64,000 nucleotides of DNA from Convolutriloba macropyga (lineage: Eukaryota): assembly GCF_964194025.1 (NCBI RefSeq), contig NC_134471.1:42842001-42906000 (forward strand), read 5' to 3'. Position 1 is the stretch's first letter. Each line of letters opens with the position of its first letter. Under the pieces are notes generated by a model. The model saw only the letters and a list, made by a program, of their open reading frames with translations. It was not told the origin of the DNA and made no database searches. Below are positions 23,775-64,000 of this stretch, one piece after another. The position numbers were made by a program, and so were the translations under genes.

Positions 23775-25160
23775 CTCTTTATCCTGAAATCACCAGTTTA
23801 AAACACGTGGTGGACCACAACTCGCACTTGTCTCTTCTGAGTTCAAGGCCACACATGGTACCATGAGTTGATAGAATTTGTAATGATTCACAAATCTCTT
23901 CCGTTCTTACTATAATTCCATCGTCAAGGTACCAAGAATTCTGCATAAAATTTGGTAACTTATTCTCAAGTTCATTGATAATAGGCCAAAGTATTAAAGA
24001 AAACAGTAAGGGCCCCAGCGGGTCTCATTGTTGGACTCCTGATTAACTTTGAATGTGAGTTGAATTAAAAAAGAGCTTGTTATGCTAAGAATAGCAAAAA
24101 AAGCAAAAGAGGCAAAAGCGGGAATGAATTTTTGACCTGCATCTAGCACACTGTTTCTCGTAATGGAATTCAACGCATTTTTGAAGTCGATTTGAAGTAG
24201 GCCCACTTTTTCGTTGTTCAATAACTTTTGAAAAGTTGTCTGGATGAAAAAAGTTCAACAGCCTCAGAACTGGCCATTTGCGCAATACATTTGGCTATCA
24301 GACGCCAAAAAACTTCTCCTACCGCGATTGACCGATTATCTACTTTTGTCTTTTTCAGCGCTGTAAGCGAAGCACAGCAAAAAGTTGGAGCGAAACTGGG
24401 GAGCTGCCCTTTGCTAGCCAAACTTACCAGTTTTGTGATGCTTGAAACAATTTTTTCACTGATCGCGGACTGCGCACGTTACGGCATGTAGAAGGTGCTC
24501 AGTGTACATTTTGGATGGACCGGCTGCTGTGAAGTTTAAGATAGCAATTTTTTAAACACATATGCTTCGTTAAACTGATAAGCATAACTACTGTAACCGT
24601 CAGTTTCACGCGGTGGAACTTCTGCTGGGTGCATGTCCAACAACTGTTTCAGCGTTTTTTTTATTATCAGGGGCCACTCCATCCAAAGACAAGCTTTTTG
24701 CTGCACGTCCAAATTGGCCTTGAAGGCAGAGATTTTGCACGTTCTGCAAAAAGCGATTCCATTGAGTCATGATTTAATTGCAGCTGCTTGTGTTTCTTCC
24801 CCCTCTGTTGCTAGCGCGCAGAACACACTTGCTTATTGCAAAGAGTTTTTTTCCAATTTTCGGGGGAACTTGGTTGAGAAACAGCCCTCAAGGATAGGTG
24901 TTAGCAATTCGGACCATCTTAGCCGAAACTTGACAGGAATAAAGCAGAGTGTAGGCAATTTTTTCTTGCAAATCGTTTCATGGTCTGGGAGGGCGTTTAG
25001 GTTCAAATTTGCTGTGTTTTGAGAGGCGTTACTTTCGGCAATTTCTTCGCTTTTTGTGGCAGAGAATAGCTCGTCAATGCGGGCTGCACCCGCCCCATGA
25101 AATTGTCTTCTCAAAACAGTTTTGATGAATCGCATTCTTACAGACTGCTTAGGCTCTAAG
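23770..25160 (-). mobile_element. CRE-clade element, partial copy B (N-terminus and RT)
   Basis: Duplicate of 22483-23774 plus the N-terminal region. WYLDDG is intact (~23917-23935). LPTLCFIPVKFRLRW…RASNRG N-terminal motifs present. Junction microhomology TGTTT at 23770-23774. Confidence 0.88.
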
Positions 25161-28100: not shown

Positions 28101-28374
28101 TGCGGATTTCATTATATGCAATATACATATTAGCAAACCATTTCAAGACAACAATCACTGCTTTTACTGTTTTGCAGCTAAAAATGGCTGAATTGTCTTC
28201 AAACTGTCAACGTAAAAATCTCTCATTCCAGATAACAACAACTGTTCACAAAATTTTGATTGTTCCTTTGCGGTGTTTCCGGCGACTTCTTTTGAAAAAT
28301 AACAACTGATTTTTTCTAAATAAAGTCATTAGTGCTCGATTGTCAACTTTTCAAAATAATAATCCAATATTTTC
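25140..28374. repeat. Duplicated ~670-bp flank co-amplified with the CRE element (25140-25811 and 27708-28374)
   Basis: Near-identical sequence from cagactgcttaggctctaagag to taataatccaa(a/t)attttc in both places. Confidence 0.92.
25809..27720 (-). mobile_element. CRE-clade element, partial copy C (N-terminus through RT)
   Basis: Duplicate of 22129 onward. Retains the (G)VAVKCGSESIVHA RT segment that is deleted from A and B. WYLDDG at ~26305-26325. Confidence 0.88.
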
Positions 28375-35238: not shown

Positions 35239-35486
35239 TGTTGTGGTTAACAACCTTTTGACCTTCATATTGCGAGAGCTTCAAAACTTCAATTCAAGAT
35301 GACTTCTTCAACAAACGCAACAATAAATTACCACGTGATTTGAACTAAGAAATCATAATTTCATCTGATTTTATCAACAACACTTGTTTCCTTTTGAGCT
35401 TGAGTTCTTCTCAAGCATAAAGCATTTAAGTCTTTAAAGCGTTTAAAGCAAGTCTAATCAACAAAAATAAGTGTTGCAACGCAACA
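35239..35486 (+). repeat. BEL/Pao 5' LTR (248 bp)
   Basis: TGTTGTGGTTAAC…GCAACGCAACA. Differs from the 3' LTR by about 4 substitutions and 1 indel (counted by eye). Confidence 0.97.
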
Positions 35487-37715: not shown

Positions 37716-40700
37716 ATGACAAACGATTTACCTTCTCGGTACATCAACACAGACAATTGGGAGACAGTAAAGGAACTACAGTTGGCTGATCCCGACTTTA
37801 ACAAGCCCGCCCAAGTTGATCTAATCATTGGAGCTGGACACTACGTGGACTTGATGGTTGGGAACAACAGACTGAAAGAACCAAACATCCCCGTTACATA
37901 TCGGCTCTCAGTATTCGGTTGGTTAGTAATTGGACGCGAAAACGTGCAAACTTCCAATTCTTCCAGTTTGCAAACCTACTTTGTGTCATCATTTGAAGAC
38001 AGTTTGCAGCGTTTTTGGGAAATCAAGGAAGTGCCTGCAACTAAACATCTGACCGACGAAGAAAGAAGATGTGAAGAACACTTCAAGTCAACCACACGCA
38101 GAAGCCCTGAAGGAAGGTTCATCGTAAAACTGCCGTTTAAGAACGAAATTGGAGAACTGGGGGATTCCCAGCAGCAAGCACGACGAAGACTTAGAAGTCT
38201 CCTTCATAGACTTCAAAAACAGCCTGATCTGTACAGAAGATACAACGAGTTCATCAATGAGTTCATTAAACTAGGACACATGGAAGAAGTACCAGCAAAG
38301 GAGATGCTACTGCCAATAGAGAAAAGCTATTATCTCAGCCATCACTGTGTGTTCAAAGACTCAAGTACAACTACGAAGCTGCGTGTAGTCTTTGATGGTT
38401 CAGCAAAGACTACCAGTGGAATTTCTTTGAACGATAGACTGATGGTGGGACCCAAGATCCAGAAAGATCTATTCAGCATCCTGATCCGTTTCCGTATGTA
38501 TCCTGTAGCCCTTTCAGCAGACATTGCAAAAATGTACAGACAAGTGCAACTGGATACCGAAGATAAGGACTATCATCGACTACTTTGGAAGGAACCGAAC
38601 TCAAAGACATTTAGGATGACACGTGTCACGTACGGAATAGCATCATCAGCGTTCCATTCTATTCGCCCATTACAAGTTTTAGCGGAAGATGTTACGGCAA
38701 AAAATGTACAGCTAGGAATCACGACAGACATGTACGTCGACGACTTGTTGACAGGAGCACCCGATCTGGAAAGTGCAATGAAACTGCAGGACTCAATCAT
38801 AGCAGTTCTTTCAAAGGCAGGGTTTGAGATTCGCAAGTGGACTTCAAGTAACCCAGAACTTGTTGAAAGGCTACCTGCAAACTTTCGAGAAACTACCGAC
38901 GAGATGACGATTAAAAGCGACGACTACAGTATAAAAACTTTAGGCGTCAAGTGGAACCCAAATCCAGACCACTTCAGTTTTATAGCAAAACTAGACGAAA
39001 AGACACCATCTACAAAACGCGAAATACTGTCAGAAGTTACACGGCTCTTTGATCCGTTGGGATGGCTTTCACCTACAACAATTCAGTTCAAATCTTTTGT
39101 TCAACTGCTTTGGATGGACCGACTTGGATGGGACGAAGCTTTGTCGAAATGCCTTCAGCAACAGTACAGCCGACTCAGAGTTCAACTGAAGGAATTGGAA
39201 ACTATTACACTGCCCAGAAAGGTAGTTTCAATCTCGCCAGCATCATCGGACATTGAACTTCATGTCTTCTGTGATGCATCAACTACAGCCTACGCCGCAG
39301 TTGTGTATATACGACAATCTTTCGACGGAACAGTTCACACAAGGATGTTGACAGCAAAGACCAGAGTTGCACCAATAAGGAGTTTGTGCGTTCCCCGGTT
39401 GGAACTTTGTGCAGCACTTCTTGGAGCAAATTTTGGTGGAAGCGATATCATCATCTTGGAACGATCAACGTTTCCCGACACCAAAAGTGTACGCTTGGAC
39501 AGATTCAACGGTAACACTGGCTTGGCTGCAAGACTTTCCAAGAAAGTGGAAGACATTCGTTGCCAACCGTGTTGCAAAAATTCAGAACCTCATTCCATCC
39601 AGCAATTGGAATTTCGTGCCGACGGAGGAGAATCCTGCCGATTGCGCATCACGAGGAATCTCAGCCGCAAACCTAGCCAAACACAGCCTTTGGTGGAATG
39701 GACCCAGCTGGCTAGAAAAAAGCGAAGATTATTGGCCGAAGTCGGAATCAATTGAAGAACATCAGCATGCAGTGAACAACGAAGTGCAAGGAGAAACACT
39801 GAAGCAAACAACAATGGTTGTTACTCAGGAGAACAACTCAATAGTTCAGCTAATTCATCGAACATCCTCGTTTGGAAAACTGGTTCGAATTTTTTGTTAT
39901 GTCAAGAAATTCATTCAGAAGGCCAAACAACAAAGCCAGAAAACCATTGCCAGCAGAACAGATCCAACAAAATCCGATACCAAATGCTACTCACAGAAGA
40001 GGAACCTATCATCAAAAAGATGTCAACAGAAAAAGTCGGAAGCTGCAATAGCATCTGAATTTCAGTCACTTCAACTCAGCTCTTCAGATCTTTACCTTGG
40101 ACGGATTGCCATATACAGCCTGATTCAAAAACTTTACTTGCAAGAGTTTAATGCAATTGTTAGTCAATCATCTTCATCAATGACAGAAGGGAAAGGTAAC
40201 AACATTCCGGAGAATGTGTATTGTCATAAACCCCTTGGTAAGGTTGAGGTAGGTAAAGTTGGTGAGGTTGAGGTAGGTAAGGTTGAGGTTGGTAAGGTTA
40301 AGGTAGGTAAGGTTGGTCAAGGTGAGGTAAGTAAGGTTGCTAAGGTTGAGGTAGGTAAGGGTGGTAGGGTTGAGGTAGGCAAGATTGGTAAGGCTCAGGT
40401 AGGTAAGCTTTGTACAGCTCAATTAGGTATTTCAGATAAACCAACAAGATTCCACGATTTGCAGCAACAAGTAGATACAAGTGAAGAAGAATTGATCAAC
40501 AGTACCACAAAACGAAGAATAAAGCTTTTGCCAAAAAGAGGACGACTTTTCAAACTTTCTCCCTTCTACGACCCAGACAACAAAGTTGTTCGCGTGGGCG
40601 GACGACTAGCAAATTCGCCATACAACATAGACAAGAAGTTTCCTATCCTTATTCCCAAAGATTCTCCAATCACAGTGCTCCTGATTCGGGAAGCTCATGC

Positions 40701-41899
40701 AAGGAACTTACATGGAGGCCCACAGTTAACATTGTTTTATCTTCGACAAACAATTTGGATACCCGGAGGACTATCAGCTGTTAAAAAAATTATTTACAAC
40801 TGCAAGCCCTGCATTCGCCACGACGCCAGGATTCTTCAGCCTCAAATGGGAGATCTGCCAACAGAACGTGTTGTTTCATCATTTGCTTTCACCCACACTG
40901 GTTTGGACTACTGTGGACCTTTCAGCATAAAAGACAGCAGCGGAAAATTGCAGAAAACGTATGTTGCCCTTTTTGTATGTTTCAGCACAGGCCGTCCATA
41001 TGGAAACAGTGACAACGTTGACCAAGGAGGACTGTCTGTACGCCATAAAACGTTTTACAGCACGACGTGGACTGCCCGAAAATATTTATAGTGACAACTC
41101 AAGGACTTTCATTGGAACTCGGGGAGAAATTGAGTTTCGTAAATTATTAATGGACAGAGAATTCAAGGAACTGGTGGATGCCTTCACTACAGGACATCAG
41201 ATAAACTGGTTGACAATTCCTCCACGGACGCCTCATTTTGGAGGTCTCTGGGAAGCCGCAATAAAATCCATGAAGAGACATTTTTACAGGACTGTGGGGA
41301 CAACAAAGATGTCTTTTGAGAATTTCACAACCCTGATCACTCAAATTGAGGCCATCCTCAATTCTCGCCCACTTACAGCCCCCTCTACCGATGCCAATGA
41401 TCCCTCAGCACTAACACCCGCTCATTTTCTTATTGGACGCCCACTGACAGCTTTGCCGGAGCCATCTCAAGAAGACAACCGGACACTAAACAGAAGGTTC
41501 AAAAGCATCAACAACATTGTCAGACAATTTTGGAAAAAGTGGTCCGTGGACTACTTGACAACACTTCAACATCGAACAAAATGGCAGGATAACAAACAAC
41601 AGCACGCCGTCAATGACATTGTTATCATCAAGGAAGACAACACGCCTCCAATGCTATGGCCACTGGCAAGGATTACAAAAATATTCGACGGAAATGACAA
41701 GATAGTACGAGTATTCCAAGTTAGAACGCAAACAGGACTCTACATACGACCAGTAAGCAGACTGGTTCCATTGGAGAAGGAGACCAGAATCTCACGTTAC
41801 CCAAATGGAAGACAGCGGATGACTCAATGGATGAGGATTGACAAGTCAGCAGCACAACCCAATTCAATACAACAAGACCGGAAGATAAGCGTTCCTTAG
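37716..41899 (+). pseudogene. pol: BEL pol (RT, RNase H, integrase) split by two frameshifts
   Basis: LRVVFDGSAK, DIAKMYRQV and MYVDDLLTG (RT). LHVFCDAS and PRLELCAA (RNase H). HARNLHGG…CKPC, GLDYCGPF, IYSDN, HFGGLWEAAIKSMK (integrase). ORFs 37716-39755, 39409-41091 and 40961-41899. Confidence 0.95.
40236..40410 (+). repeat. Degenerate ggtaaggttgaggta minisatellite translated in frame as (GKVEV)n
   Basis: Visible in ORF 39409-41091: GKVEVGKVGEVEVGKVEVGKVKVGKVGQGEVSKVAKVEVGKGGRVEVGKIGKAQVGK. Confidence 0.95.
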
Positions 41900-42243: not shown

Positions 42244-42492
42244 TGTTGTGGTTAACAACCTTTTGACCTTCATATTGCGAGAGCTTCAAAACTTCAATTC
42301 AAGATGACTTCTTCAACAAACGCAACAATAAATTACCACGTGATTTGAACTAAGAAATCAAAATTTCATCTGATTTTATCAACAACACTTGTTTCCTTTT
42401 GAAATTGAGTTCTTCTTAAGCATAAAGCATTTAAGTCTTTAAAGCGTTTAAAGCAAGTCTAATCAACAAAAAATAAGTGTTGCAACGCAACA
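42244..42492 (+). repeat. BEL/Pao 3' LTR (249 bp)
   Basis: Direct repeat of 35239-35486, followed by TSD aacct. Confidence 0.97.
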
Positions 42493-43800
42493 AACCTAAA
42501 GTCAACGTTTCCTTTGAGAAGAAACAAACAATGGTTAACCAATGACTGTTTCAAAAGAAAAATTTGATACAAAGATGATAACTCAAAATAAAGATTTCAG
42601 GCTAATAACCTACAAACACTGATTCTGTGCAAACCCAATATTAATTAGGAAGCTCAACAAATCTCTTGCTTCTTGAATATTAATTTGTTGGTAACTCTTT
42701 AAGACAATTTGTGGTACAAAATGTGACAAAAAATAGCTTAAATTACCTGATTCGGCACCAAATGACCTGATTTTTGGCTAAGAAACATTGGTCCAAAAAA
42801 TTACATTTTTAGAATCAAAATATTTTACTTTTGATGGGGTACCACTTACAACCTTCTACGCTGAATATATCAATCTGCCAAATTGACTTTACATGTGCAC
42901 CTATAGTTCCCCCCTAAGTGGGGTCGGAAAAGTAACATCAGCAGAAAATGCTTCGTCTGTTTTTATTTGGTTCGTCAATTTGGTTCTACTTATATGGCAG
43001 TCACATCATTTACTCAATTAGCAGTCATATAAAAGTCCTTCCAAGTTTAAGAGAAATACAAACTTGCCAGGAGTCGAAAGATTTTAATACTGATACCATC
43101 TCTCAGGCCAAAACGATGTGATCAAAGATTTGCATATCTCCCCGTGGTCAAGAACACCGAGACGGCTTTAACTATGCTTAGTTAAATCTACTAACTGGTA
43201 TGTTAAAGAGTAGCAAACTAAAATTATGAATTCAATTCATTTTAGCAGCATGTGTTGTCACAGACAGACATTATCTGGATAAAAATAGACATCTAATCTC
43301 TACAAATGTTTCATTATGCACGTTAATACATCATTCCACAGCTGTGCTCTTACACGGAAGATGCACAGGAACAGTAATTTAGAATCATTTATATCAATGG
43401 CAGTTTTATACATCATAGTTTCATGGGGTTCACACATACACATTATCAGGAGGGATAAAAATACAACTATGGCCAACAGAAATGGGTTTCGACTCTGATA
43501 GTGATAGACAATGTACAACACAAGTGATCAGAACGTCAGAGGAATTGCTCTGAGAGGATGTTCACTTAAGCGTTAAATATGCTGGAGGCAAATGGTTAAT
43601 AGTTCAGTTTTTTTAATGATTCCCCCAGCTTAGTGCGCCCATAATAGATGTACCCCAAAGCACACCAGGTATATTTACACAATGATTTAATATGTAATAG
43701 CACTTGTCCGATAATTGGGGGTACATAACCTATGTGAGAAGGGGGAAGGGTAGCGCACTGGGAGGTACAGGGACAACAACGATTTTTCCAAACTACAACT

Positions 43801-44062
43801 TATCACGCCTTAGCTTTTGATTGGTTGATAAAAATAGAAAATCGAAAAATATTACACGCAGTAAAATAGTATAATTTCAGTTCTTACCACTACCACACGT
43901 CCGTTCAGCCGCTTGTATCGAGCACCCTATTAACTTAGCAGAAATCAGAACGTTTTTACCTTGTACCCCGCACAAAAAATTTAGCAAAATACTGAATAAA
44001 AACCGTACTAGAAGGATAATAACTCCATAGCGAAACCTCCTTAAATAAGGGAGTAACCCACA
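43801..44062 (+). repeat. 5' LTR of the env-bearing Gypsy element (first ~5 bp eroded)
   Basis: tatcacgccttagcttttgattgg…gggagtaacccaca aligns with 57637-57908. Confidence 0.9.
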
Positions 44063-44508
44063 TGGCGACAGATTCGGAAACTTTTTTCTGCACTGATAAA
44101 CTCTCCACAGACTTTTACAGAATAAAGGCCCTCCCTTTGATTCAAATAAAAATCTGACACTCATATTAGAATACCACTAATTATACATAGCCGCACTGTA
44201 AGAGTTGAAACTATATGGCCATCACCCTCCGGCATTCAAGTTAACGTCACATTAGACGACAACTCAGAACACGTTAAATTCATTTACTGTGGAATACAAA
44301 CACTGTACAACTTAGCAATCTTTATATGGAATTCAACTCGCTTCTACAACACCATGCCCCAAAACCTGAACCAAGCAACAGTAAGTTCCTTTAATTATCC
44401 AATCAAACCACCCAATGATTTTTGAAAACAGCCTACACAGAACAATTTTGTACATTTTTTATTTAACTTTTCTCATGCACAAACAAACAAGCAATCAAAC
44501 CAAAACCA

Positions 44509-45500
44509 ATGGCGGAACCAAGCCCTCCTCATTTCCACCTGCGACGTTTCTCTGGAGTACCAAATGACAATTGGGACCAATTTGAAGGCCTGCTTCGAGC
44601 CAGCATTGCCGTATCAAGCAGACCTGAAGCCCATCACCAACGAGCACGATACCTTCACCTACATCTTGATGGGGATGCACTTAACTTATATCTCCGGCTG
44701 CCAGAGGTTACCAAAACGACTTGGACAACTCTCTACAAGAGCAACGCAACCGCTATGCAGGTGCAGATCAACGAAGAAATTTCGAGTTTCACCTACAGTC
44801 ACAAAAATTTGACCCCCTAAAAGAACCGCAAGACGATTTTCTTACCAGACTAAAACGCCTCCCAAATCTTGCAATAGTAGACGACGACGCATGTATAGAT
44901 CGCACCGACGAAAGACAACGAATAATCAGGGAGCAATTTATTTAGGGCATGCCATTCAAGGAAAAGAAAGTTCTCCAGAAAATGACAATACTGCAGTCAA
45001 CGAGCTGTGCGCAGTAATCAAAAGAAGAGTTCGAACCGATCAAATACACCCAGAACCACAGCATTTAACGCACTTAATGCATCAAGCAACCCAGCAGTTG
45101 TCCATGCTCTAGAAAAGATAATGGCTGCAGGAATCACATCAATGCAAGTTTCACAATCACAAAACCAAAAATTTCCGGCATTCTCAAGCCAGCCAAATTT
45201 CAACAACTACGGCAGAGAAAGAGCTTTCAGTACGCAAAACAGGCCCCGACTATTTAACTTTAAAAGCCGACAAAACACTGAACGTGAGCAGTACCAATAC
45301 GAAAGAGTTGAAGGAGCGTATTGGGGAGAAAGCCGAGGAAGCTTCCGAAGAAACAGGAGCTTTTATAAACGGAATGAACAAAGACTTTAATAATAACAGA
45401 GAAAGATCCCCAACGCCATTCAGAACATTCTGTCGGACGTGTCAGCAATCAGCGCACCGCCCGAGATTGTCCTCAGCGACAACCACCATACCAAGATAGA
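44509..45500 (+). pseudogene. gag: gag
   Basis: RRFSGVPNDNWDQFEGLL…YLHLHLDGDAL; FDPLKEPQDDFLTRLKRL; IIREQFI*GMP; decayed CCHC knuckle FCRTCQQS(x)H…RDC near 45430-45470. Confidence 0.8.
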
Positions 45501-45529
45501 AACATGCCTTTCAACCAACAGCCAAAAAA

Positions 45530-48500
45530 CTAAATAACCTGCATGCTTTTCAACAAAACCTAGATAATCTCATATCAACTTTTAGAGAGAACGTTTTTCT
45601 TGTACCTTTAGAATTCGAATCTGTTTTTATCAAAACCATTGATACAGGAGCGTTCAGCAGTGCGATGTCACAAAAACCATTTAACAAAATCAAAAAGTAT
45701 AACAAACATGGAAAAGAACAAAAAAGCTCCACCAGATATTTGCGTTTCTACAGCATTCGTACAACAATCGCCGATACTCTCCATTGTTCAACTGGACAAC
45801 AATCAAAATTGGACAAATAACACTGGATAAAGAATTTAATTTTTGAAAATCTAGCTTCCACACTACTCGGTCTACCGTTTTTCGAGAGACAAAATAATCC
45901 TTGACCCAACAACCGATTACTGCATTTCCTGGAATTCACATTTCACTTCAATACAATGAAAATGAAGGGAAAAGGAAAACAAAAATGACTGAAAGCTAGA
46001 AAATTAGCCCTGAAGACAACAATAAATCCTTCAACCCGGACAACAGCAGCAATTACAATTATAACCAGAAGAAGTAATGAATAAAGCAGAACAAATAGGC
46101 ATCGTTGAGCAAACTCCAAAGTTCGAAAAACTTGGCATCGCTCTCAGTAGCCATTTGGGCAAACTAAACAACAAAAACAACAACAACAGAACAATCTAGC
46201 TTTCTATAAACACAACCGAAATACCAATAACAGTCAGAGACGGTTCAATCGTTGCAGCTTTTGACTTTATTACACCAGAGCAGGCTCGATATCAAATGAC
46301 ACTAGAACCAAAACTATTTCAAACTGAAAACGAGAAGAGAACAGATCAAATAGCAAAGTCCGTCGATAAAGCTGCCAGAGGAAACATCAATCACATACCA
46401 ATAACTCAAGAATATCAACTGTGGTTTGCCACTCAAGAAACCCACAGCAGCTCACAACTAGTGGGTGTCGAAAAACTTATTTACGAGGAACTAATAAAGT
46501 TCAAACAATTCGAGGAAATACAGCCCTCGGAAAACCAAAAGGAACACAAGACCTTCTTAAACTGATTCGCCTGGAAAAATAGCGTACTCTATGAAGCCGA
46601 TAAGAAACGTACCGAATCGCTTCTCGTGGAATTCAATGCAATCTTCACCCGACACCAACTAGACATTGGGTATAGGCACAAGTTTTCTGTGAAACTGACA
46701 CCAGACACTGACAGACCAGTTTACTCGAAAACACTAAAAATCTCCATACACTTGAAAGACGACTTACTCGTAGAACTAGCACTGCTAAAATACTACGGAG
46801 TGATCACCAGCTTACCATTCAGTCGCTACGCATCGCCCATTTTTGCAAAGCGAAAGACAATCGGGAAGCTACGGATACTTGTCGACCTCAGGAAAATAAA
46901 CCATTTGATACGAAATGACAGCATTAACAACAATTTCCCAATAGCAACACTAGCAGATGCTGGCACTCATCTCGCAGGAAATAAACTTCTGTAAAATGGA
47001 CGGAAGCCACGTATACTTTTCGGTCCCAATGGGACACAAAGAATCAGTCCAACTTCTCGCATTCAATTTTGCCTAAGAACATATGCATTTCAACGACTCG
47101 CTCAAGGGCTAAGCAGAAGTTTGAGCGCCCTCAGCTCCTCCATGCGCCAAAATACAGACCCGGGAATTACAGCTGACAAAAGCTTCCAACATGTAGATGA
47201 TATTGGCATTGGTGCAGATGACAGACATGATAGGAAAATTGAGAGCCGTTTTCTCAGGCTTTCGTGAATCGGGAATGAAACTTGCGACCGACAAATGTCA
47301 ATTCGGACTGCGCAAAATACAGTTTTCGGGGAACGCAATAGCCTCAAAATGCTTAGCACCAAAATCACAAAAAGTTGCAAATTTCCTGAAAAACTTCGAA
47401 GAGGCCAAAAACAACTAAACAAGTAAAACGAATGATTGCGTTCTTTCAATTCTACAAAGCCTTAATACCCGGGCTATCTGAAAAGTTGCTACCATTCTAC
47501 AAACTTCTAAAGAATGAAGCCAATTTTGAAATCGAGGAAGAACACAAATTAATGCTACACTAACTAAGAAATGACCTTAAAAATGCATGTAACATGTCAT
47601 TTCGATTGCCAAAAACGGACCAACAATATGTCATTAAAGCGGATGCATCCTTCTACGTCGCTGGGTATGTCCTAATGATAGAAGACTATACAGTGAATGA
47701 CATGAGTGACGAAACCAAAATTTACGCTCCAGTTACGTTCGGACTAAAAATATTGCAAAAACAAATCAACCTAAGCTCTCAATCTATGCAAAAACCTGTC
47801 CTCATTCTAAACGATAACAGATCTGTCACAAGATTTCGTCAAACGAAAAAAATACCAACCACCCTCCGGAACGCCTTGAACCACGTTCTAAGTTTTCACA
47901 CAATCCTGGGACACATACCAGGTAAAGCAAACCTTGCAGCCGACTATCTCTCAAGAATACACAGAAAATATCTCAAACAAAAACTTAAGTTACAAATAAA
48001 ATCAAGAATCCAAATGCATGAGATTGAGGTTGACAAAGCATCAGACGCCCCAGATAATTCTTTAAAATCACTTCCAGAGGAAGCACTTCAGCTGCCTAAA
48101 ATAACAAAAGACTACTTACTAACAACACAACCAAACACCGCAGAAATGCAAACCATTGAAGCTGACGTACAAATGCAACTCCTTCCATATCATATCGCAT
48201 CATTGCAAATGCAAAACCCGCTAGACGATATCACAACGCAAGGCCATGGCCCACTGAATCTACGCTCAGAGCAAAAAAGGACCAGGATACCAATAGGGTA
48301 AACAACTGGTTTGAACGCGGACGACTGGTTTGAACTTCCAGCCAACATCTCTCAACAGACCTTTAGAAGCACCTAATGCAATACCCCAGAGTAAGCATGT
48401 TTGATGGCGTACTATACAGAAAAATTTTTGACTAAACGGGGAAACACTTCACTAAATAATACTGTGTCCCAAAGCAGCTACGAAAAGAGGTACCATACCG

Positions 48501-49600
48501 AATACATAACAGCCCATGGGCCGGTCACAAGGGAAAAACATACAATTTTCGAGTTCTGGAAGCGCTTCTACTTTCCAATATTTACAGAAACACTTACAGA
48601 GTACATTAAAAGCTGCTTCATCTGCCTGCAGAGCAAACCAAGCTATCACCAACAGCATCGCTCAGACCACATCTCCAACCATTGTCAAAGCAAAACTTCC
48701 CAGGAGACGTAATGCTGATAGACCTTGTAGGCAAAAAGCACCCAACATCCTAGACTTTTATTATATCTGGTATTGACGACTTTTCGAAAAATCTGTTCGC
48801 TGTTCCCCAAACGAAAGGCGACGCCGACTTGGTAGCTAAAGCACAGACCTCAATATTCCTACGACATTAACATATACACTCACCAAAAATTTGTGACATG
48901 GGTACCGCATTCACATCTGAACTAATGAATTGGCAAACCTACTGAAATTACAACTAAAACTCTGTACACCCAAACACGCAAAAACGATAGAAAGGGCTAC
49001 TAGAAAGGAATCATGCGCCTTTGAAACAAATGCTACGATTAAACGAAAACCAAAGCTCAACAGACTGGCATCGCTTTCTCGACATAGCAATTTCTATACA
49101 CAACACAACGTATGCTCCCGCACTAGGATGCACACCTACTGCTGTGTTTCACGGAAGAACCCCAGTAAACGCCCTTGATCTAAGATTCCAGAACACAAAA
49201 CTATGGAAGAATATCCCCAAGTACGACAGTGTCAAAGAATTACAAGACAAAACTACAGAACTCTTTGCTATGGTTAAAGAGAACTTCATAGCTTTATATC
49301 TCACATATAAGAAGTGTTACGACAGAAAAGCAAACGCGACTCCACTTAAACTTCATCAGCACTGTCTAAAAATAGACCCCAAGTGTACCAAAAAAATTGC
49401 CATAATGAACAAACAACAGACATGATGGATACACCTATACGGAGTAGAAAAAGTTCTCACAAACGTCAATTACATTGTCAGAAAAAACCAACACAAACTT
49501 CACCCAATGCGTGCATCGAATGAGACTCAGACCGATTGAGCCACAATACGAGTTTGAGGACCTAAAAAAGAACAGACCCCCGTAAGTTTGAAGCCGACCC
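45530..49600 (+). pseudogene. pol: pol (protease, RT, RNase H, integrase)
   Basis: IDTGAFSS (protease, ~45640). LPFSRYASPIFAKRK..GKLRILVDLRKIN, RLAQGLSRS, HVDDIGIG (RT). ADASFYVAGYVLMIED, HIPGKANLAADYLSR (RNase H). CFIC, IDLVG, CDMG, HNTTY, QCVHRMRLRP (integrase). Confidence 0.92.
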
Positions 49601-49788
49601 CACAATTCCCGAGGAGGAACGAGAACCGCAATTAATTGACAACCAAGGCCATGTGAACACAAATCAGAACGACATGGTTCTCCCTCGAACTGACTCTGAT
49701 ACCAGAACAGCTGCCTCTAACTCTAATGTTCAAAGAACAAACTTCTCACAACAAGAAGCCAGAACAACGTTGGAACATATGAACAACA

Positions 49789-51396
49789 AACCAATCTCTG
49801 ACCAGGAAGCATTTTTCGTTGAAGTATCAGTTCCACCCGCACACACTGAGACCCCAGAATCAGTTGACACCGAAAACTGCAGTTTCTCAGCACAAAGCAA
49901 TTTTTCTCAAAAGGAAGCACAATTTGGAGCAATCCGTCCGCACAACCTATCCAGAGGAGACCACCTAGCGTTAGCACGCTAGAACTCAGTCTACAACACG
50001 CTACAACTAAAACAGGATGAAGAACCAGCGGTTGCGGTGATCACCTTTTTTCCACTAGACCCTTACACAAAACCCGAACTCCACAAATAGATGCACAAAA
50101 CGACGACTCGGATTAAGCAGAAAATCGGTCAAACAGACACAGAGAGCCTCCGGGATACAAACATAAATAGCCATGATTTGTGGCAAGACTTCGACATCTC
50201 ATTAGACCCCAACTACATGCCTATAGTCAAAACAAACACTACTCTCCATACGAATCAGGAGATTACACAACGGGCTTCACAAATACCGAAACAAATCCAT
50301 CAGAAAACTTTTTGACGATGAACGACGCTACAGTCATTGTTCTAACCAAAATCAGACACAGAACCCAAATAACAGCTCTTGGACCGACGAGCTTGAATTC
50401 ACTGTACCAGAAGACACCCATTTCCTGAGCTCATTACCCATTTCACAAAGAGTTTCTAAAAGAGAACTCCGTGACCTCGGACCAAATATAAATCAACGAA
50501 GACGAGTAGTACCACTAACCCTTCAACGGAAATCTTCATCAAACACTTGCATTCGATGAGTCACAACATACTCAGTGATTGGCAATACTACTACTAGTGT
50601 TGTGACTCATCGAATGCAAGTGTTTGATGAAGATTTCCGTTGATCTCTCCACGGTGAAGGGTTAGTGGTACTACTCGTCTTCGTTGATTTATATTTGGTC
50701 CGAGGTCACGGAGTTCTCTTTTAGATACTCTTTGTGAAATGGGTAATGAGCTCGGGAAATGGGTGTCTTCTGGTACAGTGAATTCAAGCTCGTCGGTCCA
50801 AGAGCTGTTATTTGGGTTCTGTATCTGATTTTGGTTAGAACAGTGACTGTAGCGTCGTTCATCGTCAAAAAGTTTTCTGATGGACTTGTTTCGGTATTTG
50901 TGAAGCCCGTTGTGTAATCTCCTGATTCGTATGGAGAGTAGTGTTTGTTTTGACTATAGGCATGTAGTTGGGGTCCAATGAGATGTCGATGTCTTGCCAC
51001 AAATCATGGCTATTTATTTATGTTTGTATCCCGGAGGCTCTCTGTGTCTGTTTGACCGATTTTCTGCTTAATCCGAGTCGTCGTTTTGCGCATCTATTTG
51101 TGGAGTTCGGGTTTTGTGTAAGGGTCTAGTGGAAAAAAAGGTGATCACCGCAACCGCTGGTTCTTCATCCTGTTTTAGTTGTAGCGTGTTGTAGACTGAA
51201 TTCTAGCGTTCTAACGCTAGGTGGTCTCCTCTGAATAGGTTGTACGGACGGATTGCTCCAAATTGTGCTTCCTTTTGAGAAAAATTGCTTTGTGCTGAGA
51301 AACTGCAGTTTCCGGTGTCAACTGATTCTGGGGTCTCAGTGTGTGCGGGTGGAACTGATACTTCAACGAAAAATGCTTCCTGGTCAGAGATTGGTT
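49789..51396. repeat. Internal inverted duplication: arms 49789-50568 and 50598-51396, 29-bp spacer
   Basis: Mirror-image ORFs 50180-50428(+) / 50689-51000(-) and 49653-49982(+) / 51203-51460(-). The arms are complementary with a few percent divergence. Confidence 0.97.
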
Positions 51397-51569
51397 CAAA
51401 CAGTGATTGGCCAAAATATAAAATACACCAGAATCCCAACACCAACCAATTCATTTTCAAAATTTATGCTATTCATAATGAGTTGCCGCAAATCTAAAAA
51501 AACCTTTCTTATTTGCCCACACAATTTATTTCATAACATAACAATTCACATTAACCACCCAGACAAAAA

Positions 51570-53815
51570 ATGGAAGTTTGCATAACTCTTGCGATACTCC
51601 TGAGTTATCACAAAGCTACTCGAAGTCAACCCACAGTCGCCACAAAAGATGGAGTTCTCTGCAATCTTTATCAAAAAAGTCTAACGGAAAAGTTTGTCGA
51701 AACGGAAATTCTCGTCCCTTACCCCAAAAACAAAACAATTGAAGAAAAACTTTTAATTTGGCCAGGGAAATTGAAATAATGTGGACTTCCAAAAATTACG
51801 GATGCCCATTGTACTTTACCAATATGACTGATTCAACAGCTGGACTGTACTGGATAGCACAGCAGACACTGATGGAAAACAAACGATCCCAAGAAGACAT
51901 TGAAAACCTCCGTTTGGAAATGAACACGTTACTAAGGGCAAACAGTCAAACGGGTTCAAAATTACGCCAACCGCGAGGCTCCGCAGCTGCAGCAGCCACA
52001 GTTCTAGGAATTTGAATTGGCTTTGGTGATCAACTGCTTTGCTTCATAAAATATGTCTTTGGCGGATGTGATAAAAGAGTTGCGCGTAATAAAGAAAATA
52101 TAAAAAGGGCAATCAACTACCTTCAATACTCGATTGATCACGTGGAGGAGGTCACTGTACAACACAATGAGAAATTATATGTGTCCGGTTAACTAAAAGC
52201 GATTAAGGAAGCGCAATAGTAAAAGAAAAACAAAACCGTAATTGGGAACTTGCAGAGCCAATTTAAGGTTCTGCAACAGAATGTACATCATATTCGCAAC
52301 TGCATACAAGATCTGTATGTACGAGAGCAAATCAAACAATGCAGCTCAGTCCTGAGTAAAATTTTTTAAACAATTTTGTCGAACATAAAAACATACCGTG
52401 CAGCCTTATACACGTTTCGGATTAATATCCTCAATGCCTTGACTCCACTTATGAACCAACTACTACCAATGTCACTAGTACCACGCGCTCAACTCAACGA
52501 AATTCTGACTATTGTTCATCTGCAGCACTAGATGTGGACTAGATGACCAGTAATCTTTTGCCGTGCCGATTCAAGAGATCCTCTCATACTATGAAACCAA
52601 GTTGAAGCAATCGACTCGGGGATTATTCTAACACTGGCCATCCCCATGGCCTCAAAAATCATTGATGAACGCAATACATGCAATTCTCATCCCAACGCCT
52701 GATTGAGACAGGAAAACCATTAGTTTGGCGTTTGGAAGCCAAATATATGGCCGTCTCTGATGACGGAGGAACAAGAGCTCATCGATAAGACAAGCTTGCA
52801 ATTTGTATTGGGTCCAAAAATTATGCAGAAAGCCATACCAACTGAGCGGATTTACAAATCATGCATTGGTACAATACTTTACCACTACGATGAGCTACTT
52901 GCATTGCAACGCTGTCAATTGGATGTAATAGAGTTATCACTGACTGAAAAAGCGCGCAATCTCGGCTTTGCTCGTTGGTTAATCTCATCGTCGCGCAACG
53001 AATACGCGCTCATCGTAAGCAGTGGGAACTGAAGCAATCCGCTGTTCAGAATTGAGCACTCTGGATGCCAGATTTGCATCATCACTTTAAGATGCGGAAA
53101 AACGCTACGAAAACCAAATGTTCAATTGCGTTCAAATTTAATAGCCTGCGGAAGAGAACCAGCACTACGGCTAACCGGACCCCATTAGTACCAGATTTAA
53201 CCAGCTTCCACCCCTGGATGAACTAATCAGAAGCCCAAATCCAAATTCTACAACAAATTCAACCAGAATTCAAACTAATTGAAAACCGAAGAACGAATAC
53301 ACAATCTATCGAAGACATTGCGCAACCAATATTAGAGCGAATACAAGCTTTCCAATCCGACTTGGAGAACAGATTCCAGCAGTACTTTCCCTGACGACAA
53401 TCGATTCTTTTCGGATTTCTGTCGTTCATAATAAGCGTTCTTCTCCACCTAACATACTCTCACTTACTTCACAAATGGTCAAAGCTACATCGGAGATTCC
53501 CATTAAGGATAACACACGAGGGACGTAAGATCAGGCCAAAACACGTTCAAGTGGTCGCAATCAACGATTACGAATGCATAAAACACCCCGAACATCCGCT
53601 ACATAAATGCTCATTAGTGCTTCCTTTTGAGAATTAAAAATGGATTTGAAAACCAAACAGAGCAAGACTCATCAAAGAACAGCGAACGCCGTACAAATTC
53701 CTCCGTAATTACATTCGACAACTGCGACAAAGCGAAGAAAGAAGTATCACAATATACCCGCAACCGCAGCTGCTCCGTACAAAAAATCCATACATATATA
53801 CCGCCAACAAAATAA
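51570..53815 (+). pseudogene. env: env-like class I viral fusion glycoprotein (F-type)
   Basis: Signal peptide MEVCITLAILLSYHKATRS. Furin-type site RQPR (51965-51976), then hydrophobic GSAAAAATVLGI*IGFGDQLLCFIKYVFGGC. Heptad region NKENIKRAINYLQYSIDHV. LMNQLLPMSLVPRAQLNEIL and IILTLAIPM. Cys-rich segment (SCIG, QRCQ, GCQIC..LRCG). TM ILFGFLSFIISVLLHLTY (~53404-53460), then a cytoplasmic tail. Confidence 0.85.
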
Positions 53816-54174
53816 AAAGTACAAAATTACGTAGCTGAGGTTCCATCACCAAAACATTGAAAAACCCTCACCCTCTTCGCCAGAGATCAATCCAGCTGCT
53901 AATGAGTTTACGCAAAACGGAAGTGATGTCGAACTGTTTCTCCCCGTAGCGCTCTTTACGAAATTGATATCCAAAGCGTTTCTGAAAACAGCTTTCCCCC
54001 TTCGTCCCCAGAAAACAACAGCTAATCAAACACTGAAACAAACACACTGATTCAAACAAACAAAAAAACAATCCAATAAAACTTTCCGACTTGGGAAGAA
54101 AAAAAACGTAACAATGACCGAAGAAACTGACATTTGGACAAGGGTGCGTAATTATGTTGATACTGTGAATCATA

Positions 54175-56100
54175 TTGTACCATCATTTACGCAATTTACA
54201 TCGCAGTTTGCCTAAAAATAGGAAGGACATACATCAATTGTTTTTTAGAAGATTTGTTACCCTAACTGATGGCACAATTGTTATCTGTGCTATTCCCCCA
54301 CCCGTTTTGCTAACACATAAATGCCACTTTAAGCCTACATGGGAGTACTACAATTACATCCGACACTTCATAACAACCTCTGCAGGCCCGTCATTAACTC
54401 ACGATAATTGGGCTTAAATCAACCTAATCAATGACGACCCCTTGATCCCGAAAACAAAGAAGAATTTCGAATTTCGAGGCGCAAAAGATGGACACCTTTT
54501 TTCAATGTGGATTTCAACGTGAAACTCGGGAGTTTTCCAAGAATATATATTACTCTGCAACACTATTACATTCTGGTTAACCTTTTCTAATAATTCTACA
54601 CAAATTGCCCAATTTAAACCAGGTGATATCGAATATACCAGAGTACGATGATTCGTCAAAAGCGGGCAAACCGAGGGAATCAATGGTGAATTTGAAAACA
54701 AATCGGATGAAGAATGTTAACAATGCATCTACACCAGAATATTGTCACCACATACCTGCACGAGGTTTTGACACATGTTACAACACACAAAAAACATTTT
54801 ACAACAAGGGCCATTACTTACAAGAATTGCATGTTTATTATTATGAAAAAGAAATTTTTTTTCTTCGTCAACAATACATTCTTAAATTTAATTACTTGCA
54901 AGTACATGAGCAACACGAAAACGGCAAACTATTGTAGCCCATTCAATTCCCTGACAGTTACACAAAAACGTATAAAACTTAAAACTTGCAAAATTGTGCA
55001 AGGGGCATTACTTAAAATGCAACAATTTTTTACCTTTCCAACTTAAAACCTACTTAGTAATTCATTTTCAATGTCATGAACAATCTGAATAACATCTAAC
55101 GCTCTTTCATTGGTAATGGAAGAGCGGCACTGATTGGCTGACATGTATTTCTACTATCCACTATTTCTAGCACTACCTTATGTCAATTCTCGTAAACAAT
55201 ATTTTCCTAAATCCAACTATTTATACTATTCAGTCGAACATTAGCAGCTCTGTGACACACTTTACAACAAAATTCTTAACTCCATTCTTTATATTGAATT
55301 AACTTTTTGTTACATTCCACGCTTAATAACTTGTTGCCATAACATAAAGTGAAATTGCTCAATACCGAATTTAATACCAAGCTTTACATTTTCCAGTTTT
55401 CTACTCATTTAAATTCATTCCTTACTTAACCACGGTTTAAAACCCTTGTTCCCTCTTCAGTCTTCCTTTCTAGAATATGTAAAATAAAATGACAGATCAA
55501 GACGAAAACATTATCGACTTCGACGGAGGCTGTATACCGCCTATCCTCCCGTTCCCTATGTTTATTTATGTGCACCATGGTCCACCCAACCCAAGGCCGC
55601 TTTAAACTGGCCACCTTTGAGGATTTTATCGTTCATTAAGACGGACCCATATCGTTATATGTTGAATTCATAGAGACAGGAACCTATTACCGCCCCACAC
55701 GTGTCACCTTTAACCCCACATTCCTGGAGTAAAAAATGCCCGATTTTCTTACTAGTTCGATACGATGGAAGGGTTGTTTAAGCAAGACAACCCTTATTAA
55801 CCCCCCAAACTCGCAGTCCCATATTATTATTGCTTCAACCAGTATTAGCGTACATCTGAGTCAGCAGCTACCAAAAACGCAACATCCCTATCTAAATATA
55901 TAGTAACTCCTCATACTGGGAAGCATTAAAACGCATCATCGATTCACATTCAAGTAGCACTATCATCATTTTTAATGACAACCAACCGCTTCTCCCAGAA
56001 AACCATATATCATTTCCATCCCCAGAAAATCTATTCAAACCAAATTAGAGACTTGAATTTATTTGCTAGCTCTCACCTTATTCCAAAACTAATTAATCAT
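54175..56100 (+). pseudogene. Decayed sense accessory ORFs of unknown function inside the Gypsy-env element
   Basis: The frame of 54175-54417 continues through two isolated stops to ~54650. ORFs 54605-54937 and 54714-55046 overlap. From ATG ~55488 a frameshifted ORF reads MTDQDENIIDFDGGCIPPILPFPMFIYVHHGP/TQGRFKLATFEDFIVH*DGPISLYVEFIETGTYYRPTRVTFNPTFLE*KMPDFLTSSIRWKGC. Confidence 0.45.
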
Positions 56101-56118
56101 ATTGTTGGTGATGTTCAA

Positions 56119-57069
56119 TTACCTTACGGTTAAGCCCAAGATGGATCTTTGCGCTGAAGAAATGTCACCTTGAAATCTGTCACTCTGGGCCACACGTTTC
56201 CCAAACCATCGATTGCGAGTTGTATTTGTCCACTTCGACACCATCCGCGCCCCTGTCGAAGCAAGCGACAGCACGTGTCCAGCAACATCAGTGGGGTGGC
56301 GTTCCTCTGCCCACAAAACAACAGCGGAGACTACTTCGGACAACAGACGACAGTGCCTTTTCTCGCACCGATGGCTCAAATTAAGAGGGTTTTTCTTGCA
56401 ACGTCACCATATGTCTCGTCAATAGCCTCCCAATCAGTAACGAGAGACAGGCCCGTAGTCACTGTCAGAACAGCATGAAAACACAAAGTTGGCTGACACA
56501 ACAAGCTATCGCGAGATGGTATATAAAACTAAATATCTCCATCTCGGAACCCAACACTTTTTGGGGCCCCTTCTAATCGTTCCCATGAAGAACTGGGGTG
56601 TAGACATAATCTTTTCCAGAAGCCGAGAAAGGTGCATTGGAAAAGCTTGCATCACCACCAATTTCTATGTGACCGCGTCCACGACTCGTTCCATTGGAAG
56701 ATTGCATCCTGGGTTTTCAGATGAAACCTTTACCCTTTGTGCAATTTGGCTTTGGAATAATCACCAACTGAAAAAGTCCACCCGCTTGACATCGAGAGAA
56801 CAGAATACGGAGACAGCAGAAGAAAAGACAGCTCTGCAAACGTTCAGGCCACTTGATGTTGGCATGACCGGCCCTTCGCCATACAATTGAGCAATCTTCC
56901 GACGCAAGCCCGCCCACGACTTGACGCCAGAACCATCGACTGTTGGCACTTCCGCCAACCCAGTGCTGTCATTTTCTCCCGCCCCAAAACATTTCCTGAA
57001 TTCCTTCACCTGCTCCCGTAATCCCACATTCATCTTTGTGTTGCTTATAATTTTGATATATTTATTCAT
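56119..57069 (-). pseudogene. Decayed antisense accessory ORF (~300 codons) inside the Gypsy-env element
   Basis: Locally GC-richer block. The minus frame MNVGLREQVKEFRKC…RVDFFSW*LFQSQIAQRV…VVDAVT*KLVVMQAFPMHLSRLLEKIMSTPQFFMG runs ~170 codons with two stops. After frameshifts it continues …DWEAIDETYGDVARKTLL…LDTCCRLLRQGRGWC…WPRVTDFKVTF. Confidence 0.55.
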
Positions 57070-57631
57070 ATATTTGTTCCAATGAAGTAATCTTTAAATT
57101 TAATAATCCCCTTTTATAAACAAGGCCTTTTCAGAGCTCTATCAAAGCTCATTTATGATGCAGTACCACAATCATTTTAAGAAAAAAAATAGAATGGCAC
57201 AGCGCCAATACCACAATACCAATTTCCCACAATCCCTCCCTCCATTTATTTTATCAACCCACCAAATATGATAATTCAACTAATTCGATTTACTTTCCAT
57301 TCAAGCCCTCCGATTTTCAAAAGCCGTCCGAAGAAAAGATGAAAGGCACAAACTAGACGCATAGTACCAACCAAAGAAACCCCACTGGAGCCAAGGAGAT
57401 AGAATACAAAAATTCAGGATTCCAAAATGAATTCTTAAGAAAACAGATGAAAAAAAAAACAGAAACCATGAAAAACAAAACTTTAAAATTGCATTTTTAA
57501 GATGAATTGCTCCCAGCATGTTCTTACCCAAAAAACTTAACCCATAGAGCACCCGTAGCACAGTACACTATACCTTTTGTTTTGTATCAGGTAACGGGTT
57601 CGCTCCCCGGCTTCCGCCTTTTTTAGAGAGC

Positions 57632-57908
57632 CGTGGTATCACGCTTTAGCTTTTGATTGGTTGAGAAAAATAGAATATTACACGCAGTAAAATTGTATAA
57701 TTTCAGTTCTTACCACTACACCTCGGTTCAGTCGCTTGTATCAAGCGCCCCCAATAATTTAGAAATTAACTTAGCAGAAATCAGAACGTTTTTACCTTGC
57801 ACCTCGCACTTGGAAAAAGTGGAAAAACTGCAAAATACCGAACAAAAACCGTACTAGAAGGATAAGATCTCCATAGCGAAACCTCCTTAAACAAGGGAGT
57901 ATGCCACA
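57632..57908 (+). repeat. 3' LTR of the env-bearing Gypsy element
   Basis: (C/T)GTGGTAT…ATGCCACA terminal inverted repeat, preceded by a short purine tract agagag and followed by ctac (ctac also occurs at 43793-43796, a possible TSD). Confidence 0.9.
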
Positions 57909-58449
57909 CTACTTAAATTTGTTAGTAAGGCCTAAGCTCCATAAATGCTATCCATTCAATGACCGCAAAACTGTTGAACCGAAAATTTGCGAACACTTGT
58001 AAGAGGCACCATAACTTACTACTTTTCGACTATAGTTCTTGTTAGTGGCATTCGGTTGCAACCCGCATATTTTCAACCTATTAGAAACCCGATACATGGA
58101 AAACAAGTAGCGAAAATCGAGCCTTCTTTGTTTCAGCGTCGTAAGCAATGGCCATGATTCTTGAATTGTAAGAGATGAGATGTAGAATCAAATGAGATTT
58201 CAGACATCCATCGAATATGATCTTAAGATTAAAGTAATACAAACAGGCATTATCTTAATTCACCACAAGCAATATCTTTATTCTCTACAGTCGCTTCAGT
58301 TTCACTTTGTTAAACGTTTTATCCGTTTTCTACAACATAGCTAGTTTTACACGTTGGCAAAGTTTAACCGGCAAACTCTGTACAATAGTTTTAATTGTTG
58401 ATATTTAGAATTATAAACTAATCTTGTCTATATCATCCTATAATTGATT

Positions 58450-62749: not shown

Positions 62750-64000
62750 TTCTGCTTTCTTCGTGTGGAACGATAGCCAAAAAAACTTTAGCTAAATAAT
62801 GAAGAACAGAAACTCCTCTCATGCAGTCGATGATCATTTATTTAAAAACCATTATTCTTACTTTGAACAAGAGAAATAGTGCGGCAAAACCATTTTTCGA
62901 CTGGAAAAGACTCAATGCTTTAAGCCATATAACCTCGTTCTGTTAATATATATGATTAGCTGACTAGCTACAAAGATATTTGTCTCTATTTCCGTTATAA
63001 AAGACAAACATGATCCAGAATACAGCAGGTGAAATGGCAGCCAAGAATTGTTGCAAAAAGAATTAATGGATCACTCAAAAACCGGTAATTAAACTGGACA
63101 GACTCAGCCCTAAATCGAATTTGAAGGAAAGACAGAATTCTGTATCACATCATCACTCAGTCGTATTGACGAAGAGGAACCAACAAAATTGCAAGAAACC
63201 AACAACCAAAAACAAGAATACTTAATTCTGCTAGAACCAGCCCTCTTACAGTCAAAGGTCTACAAAATAACTTTAAAAAGTCAATTGAAATCAAAAACGC
63301 TATGCAGATACCAGTTCTTTTGCGAGAAGTCTTACTCGTAGAGCAAGCCCTCAAAACCAAACGAAAATAAGGAATACTAATTGACTGGAGAGAAATCGAC
63401 TTACTACATAGACATAATTATAGTAACAACAATTTCTCTACAACAGATCCCGGACAGCACCAGGAAAATAAGATCATTTTTGCAAAAACCAGATTGTAGT
63501 CAAGCTTATTTTTAAACTGGAATGGCCGATGAACAAAGCGTACAACTTCTTGAATTCAATTTCGGCTCAAGAACCTGGGCATGCAAGGTCAGCTGTTCAC
63601 ATACAATATTCAGTTGCGGCATCCAAAATCTGGAAAGATATATTGTTACCAATAAATGCTCTTCCTTTTTGGCAGCGGAGTTGGGCTAATGAAACATTTC
63701 GAAGAAACATTTCGATGCGTTTGTAACTACCGACTTCTTGGGCCACATACATACCAAACTTAAAAAAACATCGCCCTTTCTACTCATTGCTTTGAAACGA
63801 TAAAGCAATTATTATAACAAAAGAATATGAAAAAACATTCGAAGAAATCCCCTGTTTGCTCAAAAAGGCTTGTTAACGTAATCTAAGGATAACCCAAAAT
63901 GAACTGCAGTACATAATCTTGCAGATGAAAGTCGTTAAGCAAAAAGATTTTTTCACTTATTGAAGGGAATTGTGTTAATCAAGCAGAAATAAAAACAAAA
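62750..64000 (+). mobile_element. Decayed Gypsy RT relic of the same clade as the 43801-57908 element
   Basis: 63370-63580 reads ILIDWREIDLL…NNNF…DCSQAY…MADEQSVQLLEFNFGSRTWA, paralleling 46870-47110 (ILVDLRKINHL…NNNFP…ESVQLLAFNF). FLGH at ~63735. Confidence 0.75.

Follow-up and report, generated by a model that had tools for sequence, protein, structure and literature searches.

The window analyzed here, a 64-kb stretch of the Convolutriloba macropyga genome (1.18 Gb), contains a decayed Ty3/Gypsy provirus at positions 43801 to 57908. Between its long terminal repeats (LTRs), gag, pol and env are followed by a block of accessory genes, among them a broken antisense gene of the JmjC type (Table 1). 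A preliminary description of this DNA had recognized a Gypsy pol, an F-type env and a multi-gene accessory region between two homologous LTRs. These assignments were borne out by mapping with the proteins of sister copies, by a scan of pol and by the predicted env fold, and the proposed LTR ends were exact at 43801 and 57908. The accessory block had been left without gene identity, and the antisense JmjC gene had been missed.

The alignment of the LTR pair contained 228 identical columns out of 285, with 36 gap columns and 21 mismatches in 249 aligned bases. The LTRs of the window family start with TAT and those of its sister families finish with ATA; the TG..CA termini are not used. A search of the host genome with the primer-site pattern gave 78 matches, and the reversed control gave none; of three matching loci tested, two were called tRNA-Ser(gct) by ARAGORN. 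About 70 matches to the tRNA-Ser(GCT) 3' end lie in a tandem array (C10:2701272-2803355 of the host genome). The A AAA AAC heptamer was present in the window and in 3/3 sister copies, consistent with a role in frameshifting. Compared with sister-copy proteins, which aligned at 44509-45530 (gag), 45467-50560 (pol) and 51504-53754 (env), every gene of the window copy carried stops and frame changes. The total length of 14.1 kb given previously is correct as a span, but about 0.8 kb of it is the inverted duplication of the pol tail, and about 1.4 kb directly after env is missing (the gap between env and the next block is 77 bp, versus 1471 bp in the C7 copy). Likewise, the further ORF-like sequence estimated at about 3.6 kb does derive from open reading frames (ORFs), namely three to four small conserved ones in the family and the antisense JmjC gene, but the block from env to the 3' LTR measures 3.9 kb.

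Table 1. Features of the Ty3/Gypsy provirus in the window (window coordinates)
Feature	Position	Strand	Basis or remark
Left target-site duplication, CAACT	43796..43800	+	Right copy CTACT at 57909-57913; 1 mismatch in 5 bp
5' LTR	43801..44062	+	LTR alignment
Primer-binding site, TGGCGACAGA	44063..44072	+	Complementary to 3' end of host tRNA-Ser(GCT)
gag, broken	44509..45533	+	Mapped with proteins of unbroken sister copies
A AAA AAC heptamer before gag stop, pol in -1 frame; predicted frameshift site	45524..45530	+	
pol, broken: protease, spacer, reverse transcriptase, RNase H, integrase, long acidic tail	45467..50560	+	
Inverted duplication of pol tail, private rearrangement of this copy	50598..51396	-	95% to 49789-50568
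env, broken, F-type fusion glycoprotein (predicted)	51504..53760	+	Fold taken from unbroken sister copy L021
Small accessory ORF e, remnant (~100 aa)	54114..54417	+	50% to family B ORF, E 1e-13, over 54235-54402
Small accessory ORF b, remnant (~105 aa)	54431..54716	+	E 9e-6 over 54529-54696
Small accessory ORF c, remnant (~110 aa), end approximate	55489..55800	+	E 5e-10 over 55516-55720
Antisense JmjC (KDM7-like) gene, broken, ends approximate	56125..57060	-	E 1e-21
tRNA-like unit just before 3' LTR: A-box-like, B-box-like, T6 run	57549..57624	+	Common to family B
3' LTR	57637..57908	+	LTR alignment

Family copies were collected from the host genome with the LTR and env, as had been suggested, and also with the 3' block. 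Matches numbered 49 for env and 116 for the 3' block, and 40 of 154 LTR candidates were scored matches. For the window's own family (family A), 10 other copies chosen from these lists were compared; the segments that matched the window were 74-92% identical to it. Five of the copies were scanned for ORFs, and none showed a full-length pol or env frame. The preliminary description had allowed that env and the 54-57 kb block might be absent from other copies; instead, env was present in 9 of the 10 and the first accessory segment in all 10. The JmjC segment was present in five copies and absent from four; in the remaining copy, the contig breaks off there. Because env and the accessory block recur in other copies, both belong to the element family, and the anatomy of an env-bearing Gypsy element with accessory genes is, almost certainly, borne by the family as a whole. 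The same recurrence ruled out that env and the 54-57 kb block are nested insertions. The block is duplicated, deleted or swapped between copies, as an unrelated insertion or neutral captured DNA with chance ORFs might be. However, it sits between the LTRs of four sister families and of 16 distant elements, where JmjC is antisense throughout, it has no ends of its own, and its genes are under purifying selection with saturated synonymous sites. Such an origin is thus extremely improbable.

The preliminary description had raised the possibility of intact relatives elsewhere in the genome, and unbroken ones were found. Elements of family B (15.3-15.7 kb) and families C and D (13.9-15.2 kb) have LTR pairs that are 96-100% identical, and long open frames encoding a gag of 342-347 aa, a pol of 1720-1742 aa that is in the -1 frame after A AAA AAC, and an env of about 805-830 aa. 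Their gag carries a CCHC knuckle (zf-CCHC E 0.017, below the cut-off), and target duplications of 5 bp were exact in 9 of 13 sister copies examined. Protease, reverse transcriptase (RT), RNase H and integrase follow each other in Gypsy order in the sister pol, and the window maps likewise. In an RT tree of 20 rows, built on a 141-residue piece with three shorter pieces left out, the window copy grouped with families B, C and D at 100/100. Among PDB sequences, a peptidase-A9 RT (E 9e-30), which we take to be that of foamy virus, ranked narrowly above Ty3 RT (1e-26), an order that does not by itself place the element. Recent copying is evident from the elements hosting JmjC, whose LTR pairs are up to 99-100% identical. 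Modules have also been swapped: gag-pol-env of family D is 97-99% identical to that of family C, while the JmjC gene is only 63% identical. As a separate observation, pol residues 190-330 of L007:3912-9071, in the spacer between protease and RT, align at E 5e-11 with two database pol proteins bearing a Pfam dUTPase match, and this spacer is possibly a degenerate dUTPase.

The JmjC proteins are single-domain proteins of 370-420 aa with a basic tail. A profile search returned 214 clusters at E up to 0.001, and an alignment of 104 sequences was made from 4 family members and 100 of the 150 listed matches, picked for length. Searched against PDB, this profile matched nine sequences, all PHF8/PHF2/KDM7 (best E 0.0034). 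An AlphaFold2 model was obtained with a predicted local distance difference test score (pLDDT) of 87.9 and a predicted template modeling score of 0.85. With this model, the top nine Foldseek rows were all Caenorhabditis elegans KDM7A (best E 1.6e-9); PHF2, human KDM7A and KDM2A came next. VIA likewise ranked C. elegans KDM7A first (Z 15.2, root mean square deviation 7.2, 278 aligned). In the ESM Atlas, the antisense protein scored 0.96 to JmjC clusters, with JMJD4-type clusters among the neighbors.

The predicted ligands are H169, E171 and H246 for iron and T166 and K186 for 2-oxoglutarate (2OG). Among the rows covering each position, they were retained in 77/89 (T), 78/88 (H), 88/92 (E or D), 83/92 (K) and 70/78 (distal H), that is, in 87-96% when D is counted as kept at 171, across sequences 17-60% identical. 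The proportions of nonsynonymous (pN) and synonymous (pS) differences were 0.22 and 0.78 between families C and D and 0.33 and 0.78 between B and C, and the corresponding rate ratio (dN/dS) within families was 0.22-0.37 in three pairs. Judged from these substitution patterns, the JmjC gene is under purifying selection. By a hand count, 41 of 112 genome matches spanned the query without a stop, many of them in elements with 99-100% identical LTRs. The protein is very probably an active Fe/2OG oxygenase.

JmjC genes of this kind extend well beyond the four families. Two distant database JmjC proteins gave 115 genome matches each, partly overlapping the other match sets. From the distant homologues, 20 open-frame loci were picked by hand for diversity and form a non-random sample. 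In 16 of them, JmjC is antisense and placed between the pol and env genes of Gypsy elements whose pol is 43-56% identical, several with LTR pairs that are 95-100% identical. A second antisense ORF of 234-252 aa was also observed between JmjC and env in two distant elements (L093:7529-8233 and L095:7282-8040), with no Pfam match. The other four loci (L073/L074, L077/L078, L081/L082 and L091/L092) adjoin SET-domain ORFs (Pfam E 1e-9 to 5e-12). A long interspersed nuclear element-type RT lies near three of these four, satellite arrays adjoin three, and one has a weak tyrosine-recombinase match. The SET-JmjC loci may represent an undescribed mobile element that pairs a methyl writer with an eraser. 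The SET-domain ORF would then be the writer partner of JmjC, which points to lysine-methyl chemistry.

The RT and JmjC trees had most groups in common. In the JmjC tree, built by a quick method with no bootstrap, families A to D formed one clade (99), and the SET-linked copies fell among the Gypsy-borne ones with at least three changes. This concordance, together with the position of the SET-linked copies, indicates long carriage with occasional exchange. No JmjC relatives in viral and metagenome contigs were confirmed among 40 and 442 pattern matches, and in a viral fold library giant-virus JmjC proteins scored lower than cellular KDM7.

For the JmjC protein, we favor a trans-acting histone lysine demethylase that counters host silencing, at a probability of roughly 0.5, because the fold and motif are of the KDM7 type, SET partners occur, the tail is basic and giant-virus JmjC proteins offer a precedent. 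An oxygenase acting on a non-histone target, such as a JMJD5/JMJD6-type hydroxylase or demethylase whose targets are RNA or host proteins of silencing, splicing or translation, is less probable. Its case is that JMJD5 (14.1), JMJD6 (13.5), TYW5 (12.8) and FIH (12.7) come close after KDM7 in VIA, that the Atlas neighbors include the JMJD4-type clusters and that a histone-reader domain is absent. In contrast, all nine PDB matches of the sequence profile belong to the KDM7 group, SET-domain neighbors in 4/4 non-Gypsy loci suggest lysine-methyl chemistry, and the basic tail resembles that of nuclear proteins. Somewhat more doubtful still is a protein of little catalytic activity that binds silencing factors or methylated histone tails or acts as their decoy, or one that reprogrammes host genes rather than element chromatin. 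A diffuse trans effect of this kind would fit the lack of any visible element-targeting domain and the spread of copies without the gene, but a pure binder would have no need of the iron and 2OG ligands, which about 87-96% of the covering rows retain.

Several findings also weigh against the favored explanation as a whole. The gene is absent from C7, C16, C3 and C11, four of the nine testable family A copies, yet these spread, and it is therefore dispensable in cis. The protein has no PHD, CxxC or DNA-binding domain, so that targeting to the element is unexplained. Single JmjC sequences match nothing relevant in Pfam or PDB, and only 4 of the 104 alignment members match Pfam JmjC, weakly (best E 0.0098). 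The VIA ranking is nearly tied, with JMJD5 level with PHF2 and JMJD6 just below; with these so close behind and identities of 12-14%, the substrate cannot be read from the fold alone. The triad is HxE (E in 85 of 92 rows, D in 3), whereas that of PHF8 is HxD. One within-family pair had a dN/dS of 0.82 on 16 changes, and L061 and L079 sit discordantly in the RT and JmjC trees. A host donor was not found, since none of six host JmjC matches scored with the family profile. Finally, the env model is of moderate quality (pLDDT 68, template modeling score ~0.27).

Env carries a signal peptide, an RQPR (R-x-P-R) site followed by a hydrophobic Ala/Gly fusion peptide, heptad helices and, in a sister copy, a transmembrane segment near residue 650. 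A single env sequence found nothing relevant in Pfam or PDB, and the env profile found only coiled-coil matches in PDB at E 0.1 or worse. In the ESM Atlas, env adjoins paramyxovirus F0, PF00523 (0.94). The model of sister copy L021, made from a 20-sequence alignment, matched the F proteins of respiratory syncytial virus, parainfluenza virus, Newcastle disease virus and henipavirus in Foldseek (best E 2e-6); all the listed rows were paramyxovirus or pneumovirus F, with no retroviral rows among them. Between families B and C, pN was 0.10 and pS 0.72. Env is thus predicted to be an F-type class I fusion glycoprotein, and its conservation suggests past infectivity of the lineage.

After env, the block first holds the sense ORFs a, e, b and c (three to four in number, each of 100-160 aa) and then the antisense ORF of about 375 aa, and it varies among copies through duplications, deletions and swaps. 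Between families, the small ORFs are 31-55% identical, with pN of 0.28-0.47 against pS of 0.68-0.83, which suggests purifying selection among the sister families. ORFs b and c are probably paralogues (BLASTP E 7e-6); ORF a as a paralogue of b, c or e was unsupported (hhalign probability 0.5%). No known relative of the small ORFs was found in Pfam and PDB searches, and b, c and e had no PDB match. JmjC or small-ORF modules are also amplified in tandem within single loci (C6:30432521-30445665, C9:4400194-4404997 and L045). Another antisense ORF, 80-90 aa long and containing cysteines, has hydrophobic N and C termini and was seen at L021:7372-7650 (-) and L022:7943-8230 (-). It is 36% identical between families B and C, was not detected in families A or D and resembles a small anchored surface glycoprotein.

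Family B elements carry three A-box/B-box units that are tRNA-like: two downstream of env in antisense orientation (L022:2951-3013 and 3189-3205 [-]) and one before the 3' LTR; none was found in families C and D by the pattern used for B. The B-box count of 4, compared with a shuffle mean of 0.6-0.8 (maximum 3-4), is modestly above chance. True tRNA genes inside the elements were rejected, as ARAGORN found none in 26 sources including the window unit, and Rfam gave only a weak tRNA match (E 0.78). A Pol III (RNA polymerase III) transcript from the unit in the window is possible.

Taken together, these elements would replicate by the standard LTR cycle. As established LTR-element biology suggests, tRNA-Ser would act as the primer, pol would be reached by a -1 frameshift, and integration would duplicate 5 bp of the target. 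The predicted env fold suggests a furin-cleaved class I fusogen giving probable cell-to-cell spread. The JmjC gene would be transcribed from its own putative antisense promoter; its protein would enter the nucleus through the basic tail and remove methyl marks from histone H3 lysine 9 (H3K9) or lysine 27 (H3K27), lowering repressive methylation on element chromatin. Since it would act in trans, copies without the gene would still profit. Contigs of four runs of unrecorded type from one study covered 30/30 bins of the env-to-LTR stretch of a sister element, which shows presence only. We tentatively propose, at somewhat short of even odds, that infectious animal Ty3/Gypsy retroviruses with complex genomes form a large and recently active clade encoding an antisense histone demethylase of an undescribed JmjC family against host silencing, traded with SET-methyltransferase-bearing mobile elements as a chromatin-editing cassette.

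Other repeats were observed in the window. Long ORFs at 39379-41899, with an inserted VGKVE repeat at 40235-40435, contain RNase H and integrase motifs that are presumably BEL/Pao-like. Two 229-nt repeats at 35239-35467 and 42244-42472, which are 98% identical, may be the LTRs of this element. Tandem duplications occupy 13097-17049 (period about 1046 bp) and 22129-28207 (periods about 1283/2470 bp). A relic at 62750-64000 had been assigned to the same RT clade as the provirus. It is a real Gypsy pol remnant, decayed and distant (window 63374-63671 and L034:3-821), and runs past the window end. Against a shared RT query, it was 46% identical over RT residues 473-580 and 29% over the RNase H-integrase stretch that comes next, compared with 79% over residues 372-512 for the window element; the assignment therefore holds only loosely.

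To our knowledge, the element-encoded chromatin enzymes described so far belong to DNA transposons and giant viruses. A candidate eraser carried by dozens of naturally unbroken, recently copied env-bearing elements bears on how retroelements answer H3K9/H3K27 silencing, and elements with JmjC beside copies without it make the anti-silencing idea testable. A retrotransposon-encoded JmjC was not found in literature searches, which did not extend to subscription journals, Repbase and bioRxiv supplements. The element is of a known class, and the JmjC accessory enzyme is the part not found in print.

With KDM7A, PHF8, PHF2 and KDM2A, the element protein shares the predicted double-stranded beta-helix fold, the T..HxE/D..K..H ligands and a motif ending in HAVLT, as in PHF8. 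It differs from KDM2/KDM7 in its 12-14% identity, its HxE, the lack of PHD, CxxC and F-box domains, and its intronless, element-encoded gene; the modeled likeness would therefore be one of working, not of membership. Endogenized giant viruses of Amoebidium, in the accessible part of the report (PMC11244446), likewise carry JmjC proteins without reader domains, proposed to counter host silencing. Those belong to a DNA virus and the KDM4 subfamily and keep introns, whereas the present gene is divergent, KDM7-like and retroelement-borne. Transposon chromatin enzymes, namely TET/JBP in fungal DNA transposons, SET in HarbingerS/MuDR and VANC of Vandal, follow a similar counter-silencing logic. These systems are DNA transposons; the available portion of that article reports no retrotransposon with TET/JBP and leaves jumonji unmentioned (PMC12730594). 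Bdelloid LTR elements also have a paramyxovirus-like F env (TelKA) or enzymatic extra ORFs (DEDDy and GDSL in Juno/Vesta), the latter being shared between unrelated retroelement types. They carry env or an enzyme as ORF3, with no JmjC in the text as far as it was available (PMC5408684), while the present elements carry env and several accessory genes together.

The closest relatives are the "ancient errantiviruses" of Chary and Hayashi (eLife 2026; PMC13524379, cited here from the accessible part), a class of env-F Ty3/gypsy elements from animals other than insects. Alike are the gag-pol-env order, the F-type env with furin site and fusion peptide, the tRNA primer site and the many near-identical recent copies; the window family also has the signal peptide, furin site, fusion peptide and transmembrane segment by which their env is recognized. 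Env-F Gypsy elements are thus already published and env alone is not new, so that the suggestion of a possibly undescribed lineage is unsupported for the class. The accessible text of that article mentions no JmjC, antisense gene or dUTPase, and its supplements no JmjC. Its filters, as given there, admit three ORFs with short gaps in regions of up to 10 kb. Unlike those three-ORF elements, the present ones measure 12-17 kb and carry accessory genes, a retrovirus-like complexity outside Retroviridae that three-ORF surveys would overlook.

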